A stretch of 24,834 nt of DNA from a virus (IMGVR_UViG_2563366939_000004:1-24834), one strand, 5' to 3'; positions 2,828 through 20,758 are shown, counted from the first letter of the stretch. The notes: generated from the sequence alone by a model not told the origin. Program-made: numbers and translations.

Positions 2828-4285
2828 TTAGGAGCGCCAAAAAAAACCTGAAAACAATATAATAACAGGATAAATTTCAAGGCGACCAAGAATCATAGCT
2901 ATGCACATTAAATATTTTGCAATGTCATTAAGCACTCCGAATGACGATGCAGTAGCCCCAAAACCTAATCCCATATTATTAATACATGCAGCCACTGTTG
3001 CAAATGATGTAAGAAAATCATATCCCATACCATTTAACACCAGTATAAAAAACACCGTGAAGAGAGTATAAAGAAAAAAGAAACTCCATACAGACCTCAT
3101 TACACGATCTGTAACTATCTTCCCTCCTACATTTACACTCAACAACGCTCTGGGATGAGAAAGCTGATTTATCTCGTGTTTGCTTTGTTTGAAAAGTATA
3201 AGAAATCGAAGTGACTTAATTCCACCACAAGTTGAACCTATACATCCCCCAAAGAAACTTGACAACAGCAAAAACACTATCGTGTGCGTGGGCCAGTTTG
3301 CATAATCCTGCGTAGCTAAACCATTATCAGTGAGCATGGAGCTGGCAAGAAAAAACGAATGAATAAAACTTCCATGCAAGTCATACATACCTATATGCCA
3401 GACCTGGAAAGAGGTAACAATGATCACCCCTAAGGCTATTAACAGAAAGAAACGAAGTTCAATATCTCTGATTAAAGGTTTTATCGTTTTCCTGCTAATA
3501 ACAATATACCAAAGAGTGAAGTTGAAAGCCGATAGCAGGGAAAAAGAACCAGCCACCAGCTCAACCAAATAGTTATTAAAATATCCGATACTCTCGCTAT
3601 GAGTTGAGAAACCACCAAGCGAAACTGTGGAAATCCCGTGACAAATAGCATCAAACAAAGGCATTCCTGCAAGTCTATAACAGACAATACAAGCAATACC
3701 TAATAAAGAATAAGTTATCCACAGTGTCCGTGACGTATCGGCCAGGCGGGGAGTGAGTTTGTCATCCTTAAATGGCCCCGGCATTTCTGACTGATAAAGC
3801 TTTGCACCACCAATACCCAATAATGGCAATACAGCAACCGCCAGAACAATAACTCCTAAACCACCTATAAAATTTAACTGTGACCGATAGTACAAATATG
3901 CCCGAGGTAATGAACTAACATCATCAATTACAGTTGCTCCTGTTGTTGTTATTCCAGAAACCCCTTCAAACAGAGCATCAATGAACGTTAAATTAAGTTC
4001 TGAGTCAATCCATAAAGGGAATGCACTAATAACAGAAAACAAAATCCAAAACATTACAATTATAATAAACCCATCACGGGTACGTAATTGAATGCCAGAT
4101 TTCTTAGTTGTATACCACGCTCCGCCACCAATGCAAAAAAATATAACGAAAGTTATAAAGAAAACGAACAGGCTTTTTTCTTTATAAAACAATGCTACAA
4201 CCATTGGTGGCAACATTGAAAGACTATAGAGCCAAACCAGGAACCCACACATATGAGTAACAACTCTTACATGAGATGTATTCAT
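2828..4285 (-). CDS. trkG: TrkG, Trk-system K+ uptake membrane protein (485 aa from ATG at 4285; ORF-track start is an upstream TTG)
   Basis: Polytopic membrane protein starting MNTSHVRVVTHMCGFLVWLYSL..., matches my recollection of the K-12 Rac-encoded TrkG; strongly AT-rich relative to flanking DNA. Confidence 0.85.
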   Translation of the reverse strand: MNTSHVRVVTHMCGFLVWLYSLSMLPPMVVALFYKEKSLFVFFITFVIFFCIGGGAWYTTKKSGIQLRTRDGFIIIVMFWILFSVISAFPLWIDSELNLTFIDALFEGVSGITTTGATVIDDVSSLPRAYLYYRSQLNFIGGLGVIVLAVAVLPLLGIGGAKLYQSEMPGPFKDDKLTPRLADTSRTLWITYSLLGIACIVCYRLAGMPLFDAICHGISTVSLGGFSTHSESIGYFNNYLVELVAGSFSLLSAFNFTLWYIVISRKTIKPLIRDIELRFFLLIALGVIIVTSFQVWHIGMYDLHGSFIHSFFLASSMLTDNGLATQDYANWPTHTIVFLLLSSFFGGCIGSTCGGIKSLRFLILFKQSKHEINQLSHPRALLSVNVGGKIVTDRVMRSVWSFFFLYTLFTVFFILVLNGMGYDFLTSFATVAACINNMGLGFGATASSFGVLNDIAKYLMCIAMILGRLEIYPVIILFSGFFWRS

Positions 4286-4422
4286 ATCTAAATATTCTTT
4301 CAATTATAACCACCTTGCTGCAATATTATGATTATACTGTATAAAATTTAACCCCTCTTAGATCTTACTTCACTGTTCCTTATGAAACAATCATCAAAAT
4401 GAATCATATTGTAGTTAAGATT

Positions 4423-4899
4423 TTACTTTAAACACTGTTCGGTTATGTATTGCTGAGCACCTTCAAGTTGGGCCTGCATCATTACCAGTCGTTCCCGGAG
4501 GGTGAAATAATCCCGTTCAGCGGTGTCTGCCAGTCGGGGGGAGGCTGCATTATCCACGCCGGAGGCGGTGGTGGCTTCACGCACTGACTGACAGACTGCT
4601 TTGATGTGCAACCGACGACGACCAGCGGCAACATCATCACGCAGAGCATCATTTTCAGCTTTCGCATCAGCTAACTCCTTCGTGTATTTTGCATCGAGCG
4701 CAGCAACATCACGCTGACGCATCTGCATGTCAGTAATTGCCGCGTTCGCCAGCTTCAGTTCTCTGGCATTTTTGTCGCGCTGGGCTTTGTAGGTAATGGC
4801 GTTATCACGGTAATGATTAACAGCCCATGACAGGCAGACGATGATGCAGATAACCAGAGCGGAGATAATCGCGGTTACTCTGTTCATTGCTGACCCCAC
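4423..4899 (-). CDS. Rz-type i-spanin (inner-membrane spanin), full length
   Basis: 158 aa, N-terminal TM ([18 protein letters not shown]), coiled-coil-like periplasmic part; immediately downstream of endolysin with 16-nt overlap; equivalent of rzpR position. Confidence 0.8.
4482..4667 (-). CDS. Rz1-type o-spanin lipoprotein nested in +1 frame inside Rz
   Basis: 61 aa, lipobox-like LVVVGC, proline-rich ([13 protein letters not shown]); fully embedded in Rz gene; equivalent of rzoR. Confidence 0.8.
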
Positions 4900-5381
4900 A
4901 AACAGATTTCACGCTCAATCTCACGACGAGTCATGAGACCTTTCCATTGCTTACCGCCAGCATATGTCCAGCGACGTAGCTGATCACATGCGCCTTTGAT
5001 ATCGCCCTGGTTTATTTTGCGAAGAAGCGTCGATGTTCTGAAATTGCCAGCACCCACGTTGTAAACGAATGAGTAAAGAGCGCCGCGCGTTGTTTCCGGT
5101 ATATCGACTTTGATGTACGGGTTAATTTGTCTGGCGACAGTGGCAAGGTCTTTATTCAAGAGTGCTTTGCATTCTGCTTTGGTATACGTTTTACCGAGCA
5201 TGATGTCTTTTCCTGTATGCCCGTGACATACAGTCCATACACCAACAATATCTTTGTATGGTATGTAGCTGACACCTTCCAGACCATCGTTACCACTTGG
5301 GCCAGTGATTAACACTGATGCTATAGCAATTGCTCCGCCACCAATAGCAGCAGCAACGACTTTTCGTAATGATGGAGGCAT
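4884..5381 (-). CDS. SAR endolysin (phage 21 R21-type lysozyme with N-terminal signal-arrest-release segment)
   Basis: 165 aa; Gly/Ala-rich weakly hydrophobic N-terminus ([20 protein letters not shown]) followed by lysozyme-like domain; ATG overlaps holin stop (TAATG). Confidence 0.8.
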
Positions 5382-5596
5382 TATTCACCTCTCGCAGCCT
5401 TGCGCTTATCTTCTTTAATCTTGAAATAAAGGTTTGTCAGGTACGTCAGCAGGCCAAATACCAGACTACCCAGCACACCGATTGCAGCCCACTGTGACGG
5501 AGTTACTCTATCGAGCAACTGTAAAAACCAGTAGCCAGCACTGCCTGCGGAGGTGCCATAGGCGACACCTGTTGTTAACTTATCCATGGATTTCAT
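5381..5596 (-). CDS. Class II holin, phage 21 S21-type pinholin (71 aa) with dual-start motif MKSM
   Basis: [71 protein letters not shown] closely resembles S21 from memory; ORF-track 102-aa version is an upstream in-frame extension. Confidence 0.8.
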
Positions 5597-5945
5597 AACC
5601 CCCACCTCGCAGATGCGGGCGCTGTGTAATGGAAACAAAAAATGGCCACCAGCGGCCCGTAAAAAACACCCCGTCAAAAGCACCGGCATCCGCAGATGCC
5701 CTTTGCGTGGCGTTATTTGATGCGCGCCAGATGTGGCGCAAAGAAATGAAATAAGACTTATCGAAAATTAAGGTTAATTTGATGATTTAAACCACTTCTG
5801 AAGCTTAGTAGTATGAACATGTCCCCAGAAGGGGCCAATACTTATTATTCTTCATGGACTTTGTCCCGCGGTCTTAATCCGACGACCGCGCTACTTTTCA
5901 CCCTCTCGCAAATTGCTATCTAAAGGACGTTGTCCCACGAGTATT

Positions 5946-5980
5946 CCTGTATGCTCGTGTCTTTTTTTGTCCTGAGAAAG
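5946..5980 (+). terminator. Putative intrinsic terminator on + strand (stem CACGAG...CTCGTG followed by T7)
   Basis: cacgagtattcctgtatgctcgtgtcttttttt read directly from sequence. Confidence 0.4.
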
Positions 5981-5984
5981 GAAT

Positions 5985-6015
5985 AAAAAAGCCGCCAGAT
6001 ATGGCGGTTGGTCAA
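5985..6015 (-). terminator. Putative intrinsic terminator on - strand (stem AACCGCCA/TGGCGGCTT followed by T6)
   Basis: Reverse complement reads accaaccgccatatctggcggcttttttattcc; lies downstream of the tRNA pair and upstream of the holin. Confidence 0.55.
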
Positions 6016-6371
6016 TGCAAGGGATGAATTATTTAATTGTTATTAAACCGAGGCGTCGGGTGCCTCCCGAAGTATTCCGTGCTGTATGGATACTGTGGTT
6101 TCCCGCTAAACCGACTCTTTAAACCACCCTCGCACTGAGGAGCGCCTCTGTGGTGTTTTTATAACACCAAAATGATGCATCACCGACCCTGCCAGGAAAT
6201 ACAAAATCTCCACCGATAATGCACCATTCTGCTGCCGTAAAAAATTAACACTGAGGCTACACCCGGCCTCAAATCATAGCCAGAGAACAGAATGCTTTTT
6301 CAAAACAACCTGCTCCCACGTAATAAAAAAATACGCCAGTGCCGTAATACAATAAGGCTTGTTTTAAATGC

Positions 6372-6446
<75 letters not shown>

Positions 6447-6449
6447 ATA

Positions 6450-6525
<76 letters not shown>

Positions 6526-6771
6526 ATTGGTTCTTCAGGGGAGCGATATCACCGAGCAAAGAAGAGTTCCCCCTCAGAACCGTTTTCGATGATACGATTT
6601 AATATTCCAATCGCAACAACACTTTGCGTCAAGCTATGTAAATTTATTTATGTATTTTTATTTTATGTGAACATTTCACCTTCACTTAAAATATACGCGA
6701 CAATATATAAACAAATTTATTTTGAACGCAATTATTAAATGTCGTTTCTTATATCACACCACAAAAACAAC

Positions 6772-6800
6772 AAAACCCGCTTGATGGCGGGTTTTATTAA
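6772..6800. terminator. GC-rich hairpin flanked by T-runs about 80-100 bp downstream of Q-like gene; candidate tR'-like terminator or qut-associated structure
   Basis: aaaacccgcttgatggcgggttttatt; stem ACCCGC/GCGGGT, T/A-rich on both sides. Confidence 0.4.
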
Positions 6801-6878
6801 AGTTTAATTGCGCTTGATTCGCCTCGCGATACAGCTTTGCGAAGCGTAGCAAAATTGAAGCAGTTTACGCGTAAAAAA

Positions 6879-7421
6879 TCAAGCCGTTTTTTGAGCGAGT
6901 GATTCTCGCATGGGAATGTATAGCGCATACTCAGCAACGGCCAACCAATTAGCAATTCGCTTTTCGCATGTGCTAAAACACCACTCTGGGTGTGCATCAT
7001 TTAGCAATTCAGCCATTTTGCGTTTGGTCATCCCCCGCCCCTCATACCGTTGCCGAAGGACGCTAATCAATCCTGGATGCTCTGCCAGCACCTCACTTAT
7101 GACCCGATCAATACATAACGCCTCTGCATCAGTACAATGCGCCAGCCAGCTCTTTTGCTTACCGTTAATCATATCCCGCAAAAAAGCCTCAAGTTCAGAC
7201 TTGTTCAGACCTGCTTTTTTCATCCTCCGGAGCGCCTCGTTAATTGCCGTTTTTGTCAGCTTTTTAGAGGCCAACAACTGATTGAACATATTTCCTGACC
7301 TGCCACCGCCAATATACGACCAGCGCCCCCACATACGCAGTTTGCCCTGAATCCAGACACTTTCCAGCGTTGCGAGACGAAGGTGTTCTCCGCTTTTTCC
7401 TGTATTCGTTGGGTAAATCAC
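6879..7421 (-). CDS. Putative late-gene antiterminator Q-like protein (about 180 aa from GTG at 7421)
   Basis: Position between nin-like genes and lysis cassette; GTG start preceded by AGGAGG and overlapping upstream stop (GTGA); two Cys pairs (CTDAEALC, WCFSTC) compatible with a Zn site. Family assignment is inference from synteny. Confidence 0.5.
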   Translation of the reverse strand: MIYPTNTGKSGEHLRLATLESVWIQGKLRMWGRWSYIGGGRSGNMFNQLLASKKLTKTAINEALRRMKKAGLNKSELEAFLRDMINGKQKSWLAHCTDAEALCIDRVISEVLAEHPGLISVLRQRYEGRGMTKRKMAELLNDAHPEWCFSTCEKRIANWLAVAEYALYIPMRESLAQKTA

Positions 7422-8773: not shown

Positions 8774-8929
8774 TTACTCCTCAGGTTCGTAAGCTGTGAA
8801 GACAGCGACCTCCGTCTGGCCGGTTCGGATTCGTACCTCACAGAGGTCTTTCCTCGTTACCAGTGCCGTCACTATGACGGTTAAACAGATGACGATCAGG
8901 GCGATTAACATCGCCTTTTGCTGCTTCAT
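8774..8929 (-). CDS. Hok-family type I toxin (51 aa)
   Basis: Hand translation gives MKQQKAMLIALIVICLTVIVTALVTRKDLCEVRIRTGQTEVAVFTAYEPEE, a Hok/Gef family sequence; missed by ORF track because under 60 aa. Confidence 0.85.
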   Translation of the reverse strand: MKQQKAMLIALIVICLTVIVTALVTRKDLCEVRIRTGQTEVAVFTAYEPEE

Positions 8930-9451
8930 AGCCTGCTTCTCCTTGACCTTTCGGTCCGTAAGAGGCTAATCTCTATGTGTCGCATAGATATGGCCTCAGA
9001 TTAATGTTAAACGTCTTGCAGGACGCGTAATGTTAACTGGGGCTTTTCTCTATCTACCTTTGGTGTTCATGCCCGAGGCAGATAGCCTCAAGCACCCACA
9101 GCAATTCTAACTATCCAATACATCACTGCCAACACTTTAAACTCTTACCCTTTAAAACAAGAACAAAATTCAACCAATCAGCATTGGGCGTATACTCATA
9201 TCCTAGAGAAAACAACTCTTTCTGTACTATTTATATCCATATGATTTATAAGCATTTGCCACTTGCCATAGCCGCACAATGACAGTTTGCCATTTGATGT
9301 CAATAGATAAAAATGATCGTTTTCAATGAGTTACATACTTGCAAGGCGTTGCACATCAGGCCCGATTACGTCAGTATCAAAAGATTACAGATGGTGCATT
9401 ACTGCCACCTCGCCTTAATGTTCCAGAACTCTCCAACTTGAGGAATTTTCA

Positions 9452-20382: not shown

Positions 20383-20577
20383 ATGAGATATGACAATGTT
20401 AAACCATGTCCATTTTGTGGTTGTCCATCAGTAACGGTGAAAGCCATTTCAGGATATTACCGAGCGAAGTGTAACGGATGCGAATCCCGAACCGGTTATG
20501 GTGGAAGTGAAAAAGAAGCACTCGAAAGATGGAATAAACGAACCACTGGAAATAATAATGGAGGTGTTCATGTATAA
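20383..20577 (+). CDS. ralR: RalR (Lar), restriction-alleviation protein / type I TA toxin
   Basis: 64 aa MRYDNVKPCPFCGCPSVTVKAISGYYRAKCNGCESRTGYGG... Confidence 0.85.
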   Translation: MRYDNVKPCPFCGCPSVTVKAISGYYRAKCNGCESRTGYGGSEKEALERWNKRTTGNNNGGVHV

Positions 20578-20758
20578 AATTACCGCCACTATTGAAAAGG
20601 AAGGTGGCACTCCTACTAACTGGACAAGATATTCAAAATCTAAACTAACGAAATCAGAATGCGAAAAAATGCTCTCAGGTAAAAAAGAAGCAGCCGTTTC
20701 CAGAGAGCAGAAAGTAAAACTGATAAATTTTAATTGCGAGAGACTTCAGTCCTCGTGA
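20570..20758 (+). CDS. rcbA: YdaC/RcbA small protein (62 aa from ATG 20570)
   Basis: GGAGGTG RBS; start overlaps ralR stop; synteny between ralR and xisR. Confidence 0.6.
   Translation: MYKITATIEKEGGTPTNWTRYSKSKLTKSECEKMLSGKKEAAVSREQKVKLINFNCERLQSS

Follow-up and report, generated by a model that had tools for sequence, protein, structure and literature searches.

The DNA between positions 5597 and 6015 of the window (the whole 24,834-nt stretch of viral DNA that was analysed) is likely to contain the 3′ ends, pointing towards each other, of two small non-coding RNA genes that are transcribed separately and placed at a lambdoid moron site between the antiterminator gene Q and two tRNA genes on one side and the lysis cassette on the other. 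One RNA, on the late (minus) strand, would extend from about 6175 or 6151 to 5985 and would be a divergent member of the STnc100 group; the other, on the plus strand, would extend from about 5819–5821 to about 5898 or 5968 and would have a sigma-70 promoter of its own and tandem terminators. The anatomy of the pair, its conservation, its strands and its fixed position are observed features of the DNA. The layout is already known from Shiga-toxin phages; the plus-strand RNA, judged by its sequence, is a new and unannotated family.

The window is a defective lambdoid (Rac-like) E. coli prophage whose late genes are encoded by the minus strand. Two features identify it as such: the lysis cassette runs directly into trkG without terminase or structural genes (2828–5596, minus strand), and the RNAs RalA and sok are present elsewhere in the window. 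In particular, an Rfam scan of the window at gathering scores returned only RalA, sok and two tRNAs. RalA, the antitoxin RNA of the RalR/RalA pair, scored 220 bits, and sok, the antisense RNA of a hok/sok-type module, scored 101.5 bits, both above the gathering threshold; the two antitoxin RNA sites are 20576–20754 and 8927–9097 (minus strand). Q and the lysis genes, as identified with Pfam, are still intact and adjoin trkG. The late-strand order is Q, tRNA-Thr, tRNA-Gly, about 770 nt of non-coding DNA, holin, lysozyme, Rz and trkG, with the following coordinates.

6879–7421, minus strand: antiterminator gene Q (DUF1133 / Phage_antitermQ; Pfam PF06576, E = 2.3e-106)
6525–6450, minus strand: tRNA-Thr(TGT) (ARAGORN; Rfam tRNA)
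6446–6372, minus strand: tRNA-Gly(TCC) (ARAGORN; Rfam tRNA)
5381–5596, minus strand: holin gene of the P21 S type, first of the lysis cassette (Pfam PF04971, E = 4.8e-35)
5381–4884, minus strand: lysozyme gene (Pfam PF00959)
4899–4423, minus strand: Rz gene (Pfam PF03245)

The Pfam model PF06530 is also matched by Q, barely over its cutoff (27.2 bits against 26). Both tRNA genes are read in the late direction, downstream of Q and upstream of the small RNA pair, which occupies the holin-proximal half of the roughly 770 nt between tRNA-Gly (6372) and the holin start (5596), a stretch with no conserved ORF. The late promoter PR′ could not be placed; the sole candidate near the end of Q, TTGATT-17-TTCAAT (about 6881–6853), is weak. 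The roughly 200 nt between tRNA-Gly and the late-strand RNA (6176–6371, minus strand) are highly conserved, mostly above 90%, and a hairpin with a T-run at 6272–6251 may terminate the tRNA operon.

Two intrinsic terminators face each other within the interval.

5936–5968, plus strand: stem CACGAGTAT/ATGCTCGTG (5936–5959, 9 pairs), then TCTTTTTTTG with T7 at 5962–5968
6007–5985, minus strand: stem-loop CCGCCA-TATC-TGGCGG (6007–5992), then CTTTTTTATT with T6 at 5990–5985

Their predicted 3′ ends are about 17–20 nt apart, with no overlap. The first-pass annotation of this DNA had described such a facing pair, and its coordinates are right to within about 10 nt: the minus-strand element, given as 5985–6015, was recovered with its stem and T6 down to 5985, and the plus-strand element, given as 5946–5980, exists with other limits, its hairpin beginning 10 nt earlier (5936) and the element ending at 5968. 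The number of terminator-like sites alone is within chance (six in 2.4 kb, compared to 2.9 ± 1.8 in shuffled sequences); it is the conservation of the module and the compensatory changes in its hairpins that lift the terminators above chance. In particular, the CCGCC/GGCGG stem and T-run of the minus-strand terminator are kept while the loop varies, even where the body of the RNA has been deleted, and the plus-strand terminator shows compensatory changes from CACGAG/CTCGTG to CACGGAC/GTCCGTG in one variant type (L010). Its stem also includes a U·G pair that would be an A·C mismatch on the minus strand.

Further hairpins lie on the holin side of the interval. GC-rich hairpins do occur throughout 5634–5960, as had been claimed together with an absence of ORFs; ORFs of 20–53 aa are present, none of them conserved. 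Three of the hairpins (5644–5657, 5685–5700 and 5724–5739) do not belong to the plus-strand RNA. They precede its promoter and carry their T-runs on the minus strand, which makes them terminator-like elements of the late strand, within the holin leader; two of these are the following.

5700–5685, minus strand: terminator-like hairpin GGCATCTGCGGATGCC in the holin leader
5657–5644, minus strand: terminator-like hairpin GGCCGCTGGTGGCC with T6, its tail reaching 5634, in the holin leader

A holin-leader block of about 120 nt, which includes both hairpins, precedes at least three unrelated holin types in about 1170 E. coli genomes. A CATCTG / ATATCTG motif recurs in several hairpin loops of the holin leader (5600–5750) and in the loop of the terminator at 6007.

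The plus-strand RNA is predicted to begin just downstream of a sigma-70 promoter and to consist of the following elements.

5786–5791 and 5809–5814, plus strand: predicted promoter, TTTAAA, 17-nt spacer, TAGTAT
5819–5899, plus strand: core of the small RNA, short form of about 80 nt (alignment A2, RNAalifold)
5821–5835, plus strand: 5′ hairpin
5836–5855, plus strand: conserved single-stranded stretch AAUACUUAUUAUUCUUCAUG
5856–5866, plus strand: small invariant hairpin GGAC/GUCC
5867–5890, plus strand: hairpin 2, then UACUUUU
5936–5968, plus strand: second terminator, giving a long form of about 150 nt (5819–5968)

The start at about 5819–5821 is read off the position of the −10 hexamer. The hexamers match at only four of six positions each, and a consensus scan did not report them; TTTAAA-17-TA(G/A)TAT is present at fixed spacing in 86 of the 88 unique variants analysed for the promoter, drawn from a search with a 23-nt pattern that retrieved 115 viral contigs. 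The −35 reaches a majority frequency of 1.00 and the −10 one of 0.93, compared to 0.68–0.69 for the linker and the gap between the terminators, and a conserved A/T-rich block (5745–5785) lies upstream. The single-stranded stretch, like the hexamers, is better conserved than the linker and the terminator gap.

The structure was derived from alignment A2 (39 unique variants of the plus-strand RNA) as an RNAalifold consensus. Across this alignment, 98.1% of cells are paired, compared to 36–51% in controls with a slid partner, and there are 31 double-change cells as opposed to 12.1 ± 3.5 in shuffles that ignore phylogeny, a count equalled by none of 500 such shuffles. CG/UA covariation was counted as 19 against 16 in the 5′ hairpin and 26 against 13 in hairpin 2; overall, covariation amounts to three pairs among closely related sequences. 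In an alignment of six sequences, three plus-strand hairpins already have compensatory changes. Because the 5′ arm and the loop of hairpin 2 were set by the pattern used for retrieval, conservation at these positions is partly circular.

The strand of this RNA is indicated by the U·G pairs, which become A·C on the other strand, by the T-runs and by the stronger fold: from 5819 to 5971, the fold z is −3.78 on the plus strand and −2.58 on its complement. The core of about 80 nt has a z of −2.71. The U-run after hairpin 2 is T6–T9 in two variant types (L010 and L020), and in the latter homology stops directly after it, so that the conserved unit is taken to be a small RNA of about 80 nt. In the window itself this U-tract is the weak UACUUUU, which, together with the second terminator at 5936–5968, predicts an additional form of about 150 nt and leaves the predicted 3′ end anywhere from about 5898 to 5968. 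The first-pass proposal of a small RNA that is read from the plus strand, lies antisense to the late transcript and ends at the plus-strand terminator is supported by comparative data, namely the conserved promoter at 5786–5814, the covarying 5′ hairpin, the conserved single-stranded stretch and T-runs that exist only on the plus strand; its proposed length of 250 nt is replaced by about 80 or 150 nt.

In anatomy, the predicted parts are those of Hfq-dependent trans-acting small RNAs in general, namely an own promoter, a 5′ stem-loop, a conserved single-stranded seed and a Rho-independent terminator with a U-tail. An Rfam scan of 5500–6900 yielded no match to the plus-strand RNA at E ≤ 10; on the minus strand, it gave a sub-threshold match to STnc100. 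When the single-stranded stretch was compared by RNAduplex with the sense RNA, the holin start, the window as a whole and the core-genome paralogue described below, no pairing was better than that of shuffled seeds.

The minus-strand terminator is most likely the 3′ end of a second gene, that of an STnc100-family small RNA, in the same position as the STnc100 RNA opposite AsxR in prophage Sp5 of the Sakai strain.

5981–6175, minus strand: structured RNA, divergent relative of STnc100 (RF02076) (Rfam, alignment A3)
5985–6007, minus strand: its intrinsic terminator

The Rfam alignment to STnc100 covers the whole model at 6175–5981 (25.9 bits, E = 7e-4 to 3e-3) and does not reach the gathering score of 47 bits; the RNA is therefore regarded here as divergent kin of STnc100, short of a certified member. 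It has the STnc100 architecture, with a closing helix around internal hairpins that end in the CGGGAGGCACCCG hairpin, followed by the terminator, and TGtTATAAA at 6166–6158 is a possible extended −10. Alignment A3, with 37 unique late-strand variants and an RNAalifold consensus independent of the Rfam alignment, supports a multibranch structure with 98.4% of its cells paired; seven pairs covary, and there are 31 double-change cells, compared to 11.8 ± 2.5. The covariance model built from it (R1) matches the Rfam-confirmed STnc100 loci in Sakai and E2348/69 at coincident coordinates, with E-values from 1.5e-6 to 0.014; it does not match PasD (PasD1 and PasD2). The R1 matches, by locus, are as follows.

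L132, 3255–3380: 32.1 bits
L006, 170–362: 32.0 bits
L133, 922–1114: 28.1 bits
L130, 5432–5630: 16.4 bits

About a third of the variants have lost the STnc100-like body and retain both terminators. In STEC316-type prophages, an STnc100-like RNA is accompanied by another plus-strand terminator element (L009, 3690–3830, plus strand in the orientation of the window), CCACAGAG...CTCTGTGG followed by T7, which lies between the STnc100-like RNA and TerB. The slot on the opposite strand thus appears to accept different cargo.

This arrangement is the same as that described by Tree et al. 2014 (PMC4104026), who reported convergent small RNA pairs 3′ of PR′, at the moron site, in eight Sakai prophages, such as EcOnc27 facing AsxR. 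Here too, the pair is located 3′ of Q and PR′ and 5′ of the lysis genes, with facing, abutting terminators. One such layout is that of Sp5, where STnc100 (5423–5628, plus strand) abuts AsxR (5630–5682, minus strand): in both, a late-strand RNA of about 200 nt ends at a terminator that abuts that of a short opposite RNA, although the gap between terminators is 1–4 nt in Sp5 and about 17 nt here. The upstream cargo is stx2AB in Sp5, whereas in Sp4, as here, it consists of tRNA genes, which STnc100 directly follows. The late-strand RNA shares with STnc100 its strand, position, closing helix, CGGGAGGCACCCG last hairpin and terminator, and the models match in both directions; however, there is no blastn similarity between them, and the internal hairpins differ in sequence and length.

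The plus-strand RNA, in contrast, is unlike the opposite-strand partners known from Sakai. AsxR, the partner of STnc100 in Sp5, and AgvB, from Sp10/Sp17, are 51–60 nt long, compared to about 80 or 150 nt here, and an Rfam search of 5500–6900 at E ≤ 10 found no match to either (RF02703 and RF02702), including their conserved 3′ region of about 42 nt. Further, the interval has no blastn similarity to the small RNA regions of Sakai Sp3, Sp4, Sp5, Sp6 and Sp10, and none (word size 7) to the PasA, PasB, PasC and PasD loci of E2348/69; a covariance model of the plus-strand RNA (R2) found no match in the late regions of Sakai or E2348/69, including loci L004–L006. Comparable in layout are PasA and PasC of EPEC E2348/69, whose sequences place them opposite the late operon between an esterase gene and the holin. 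Like the plus-strand RNA, they lie between Q-proximal cargo and the holin and each has a terminator; PasC, moreover, has a recognisable sigma-70 promoter, and in the family the 3′ end is conserved while the 5′ part varies. Hfq binding and expression have been shown for PasA and PasC (PMC8550237), whereas the plus-strand RNA is known here from its sequence, with no similarity to either in sequence or model. PasD is STnc100-like and runs in the late direction (Pearl Mizrahi et al. 2021, PMC8550237; Zhu, Shabalina and Storz 2026, bioRxiv 10.64898/2026.05.13.724894). HnrS (EcOnc10-12) was rejected as a counterpart, being encoded downstream of Rz and not upstream of the holin. A literature search for the sequence strings and for small RNAs at yodB/serU found nothing.

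The 770-nt module is present in 378 of 5426 complete E. coli genomes (nearly full length in 197). It is also carried by two phages on deposit, vB_EcoS-683R6 and SerU-LTIIb, the latter an LT-IIb toxin phage, and is joined to differing holins and differing Q genes. One carrier strain, 14EC029 (NZ_CP024141.1), is 99% identical. The plus-strand core is found in 369 of the 5426 genomes, nearly full length in 296; among the records listed, annotation over it comprises no RNA gene and only an occasional 'hypothetical protein'. Among GTDB representative genomes, the exact pattern occurs only in Escherichia ruysiae. At all of 121 loci, the plus-strand RNA lies between Q and the lysis genes and always opposite to the late genes, with Q (three families) or a Dam methylase as its upstream neighbour and a holin (two families) or TerB-DUF3927-holin as its downstream neighbour. 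Most carriers are commensal, animal, environmental or ETEC strains, the LT-II toxin phage being among the carriers, with EHEC and EPEC in the minority.

A 45-nt match to hairpin 2 leads to a paralogue in the core genome, in the yodB-serU (zinT-serU) intergenic region, which is present in 5418 of the 5426 complete E. coli genomes (99.9%).

K-12 NC_000913.3, about 2,043,039–2,043,184 (3040–3185 of locus L136), plus strand: core paralogue, by sequence match
E2348/69, 2905–3055 of locus L135: core paralogue, by sequence match

The paralogue has the same upstream and promoter block and the same terminator block, with a different 5′ hairpin and a different single-stranded middle. It has no annotated feature and no Rfam match, and the zinT-serU intergenic region has no entry among those listed in the RIL-seq supplements of PMC8550237. 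The adjoining serU is a phage attachment tRNA, after which phage SerU-LTIIb is named. Tentatively, these sequences suggest a modular small RNA family with fixed promoter and terminator blocks around a swappable 5′ hairpin and seed, whose core member would be at yodB-serU and whose re-seeded copies would be carried by lambdoid prophages at the moron site of the late operon; in that case, the host small RNA could face competition from the phage copies or have its regulon rewired by them.

By analogy with AsxR, AgvB, PasA, PasC, STnc100 and PasD, both RNAs of the window are probably made in the lysogen from their own promoters, and both probably act in trans, together with Hfq, on host or prophage mRNAs via the single-stranded stretch; an Hfq dependence of the plus-strand RNA would be pure analogy. 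The back-to-back terminators would stop either transcript before it extends into the other as antisense. Moreover, the late-strand terminators at 6007–5985, 5700–5685 and 5657–5634 may shield the holin from the constitutive tRNA and small RNA promoters, so that only Q-modified polymerase would reach the lysis genes; such insulation of a lethal gene from constitutive cargo promoters is proposed as the reason for the several terminators ahead of the holin.

The same elements have been read as a control of lysis. According to this explanation, which is doubtful, the plus-strand RNA would be mainly a cis-antisense regulator that pairs or collides in transcription with the late transcript, and the terminator pair would form a tR′-like checkpoint for lysis timing or against a leaky holin. 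By its position, the RNA is perfectly complementary to 80–150 nt of the late transcript, and its location upstream of and opposite the lysis genes at 121 of 121 loci looks like positional selection; moreover, since Q and the lysis cassette beside trkG are both intact, any leaky lysis would come at a cost, and three late-strand terminators separate the tRNAs from the holin. However, the overlap covers only non-coding leader, 220–370 nt upstream of the holin start, with TerB and DUF3927 genes additionally lying between the RNA and the holin in some loci. A purely cis role would not need the primary sequence of the single-stranded stretch to be conserved, and the same promoter and terminator modules exist at yodB-serU with no late operon opposite. 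The first-pass suggestion of a regulatory node for late lysis expression is not supported, as neither a coding sequence nor a ribosome-binding site is overlapped by the plus-strand RNA, and the complementarity of its single-stranded stretch to the holin start region is not above that of shuffles. Control of lysis by the plus-strand RNA is possible, and these comparisons lend it no specific support.

The parallel that had been drawn with lambda tR′ is also not borne out. Lambda tR′ is the first terminator directly downstream of PR′ and adjoins Q, whereas the minus-strand terminator here ends its own predicted small RNA gene 872 nt past the Q stop, with two tRNAs and the hairpins at 6799–6768 and 6272–6251 in between. 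Its likeness to lambda tR′ / 6S RNA and to StxS is that of an intrinsic terminator in the late path that Q-modified polymerase must read through. A strong minus-strand terminator at 6799–6768 (a 13-pair stem with a T-run, 80 nt past the Q stop) is a better fit to tR′, which again counts against a checkpoint at the facing pair, and a short PR′ transcript of the lambda 6S RNA or StxS kind could end there; the region around it (6768–6880) has sub-threshold Rfam matches to STnc370 (35.4 bits against 54) and to isrK.

A further explanation, which is improbable, is that no functional RNAs are made and that the hairpins are transcriptional insulators or what remains of a moron gene since lost, and simply travel with the tRNA and lysis modules. 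Moron cargo does come and go: the STnc100-like body is lost in about a third of the variants while both terminators stay, terminator number alone is not above chance and some annotators call hypothetical ORFs over the region. These calls, however, are not conserved. Public 'hypothetical protein' ORFs of 41, 132 and 105 aa are at 5629–5754 of the window (plus strand), at 2724–3122 of L010 and at 3273–3590 of L002; no conserved ORF was found in the interval, the longest ORFs differing in frame and sequence between variants, and because their frames are not conserved, the annotated ORFs are probably spurious calls laid over small RNA genes. Insulators or remnants would also leave unexplained the promoter hexamers at fixed spacing in nearly all variants, a compensatory 5′ hairpin outside any terminator, the conserved single-stranded stretch and a late-strand RNA with a covarying multibranch core that is kin to an Hfq-bound small RNA family. 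It is least credible of all that the plus-strand unit is a tiny mRNA for a small protein that ends at the terminator, since its ATG-started 36-aa ORF (5813–5923, plus strand), just past the predicted promoter, has no Shine-Dalgarno sequence, loses both ATGs in L010-type variants and is shifted in frame between common variants by a 1-nt indel in the first hairpin.

Prophage small RNAs at this site (AsxR, AgvB, PasA-D and STnc100) rewire host regulation in pathogenic E. coli and have so far been catalogued only from EHEC and EPEC. The convergent-pair layout is now seen in about 5–7% of complete E. coli genomes, with an opposite-strand partner that neither Rfam nor any of the annotations examined contains. 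That partner is a concrete small RNA candidate for which a start, two ends and a possible seed are predicted. Overall, it has a near-universal and unannotated paralogue in K-12 itself, which, if the modular reading is true, would be an unnoticed small RNA of the host.
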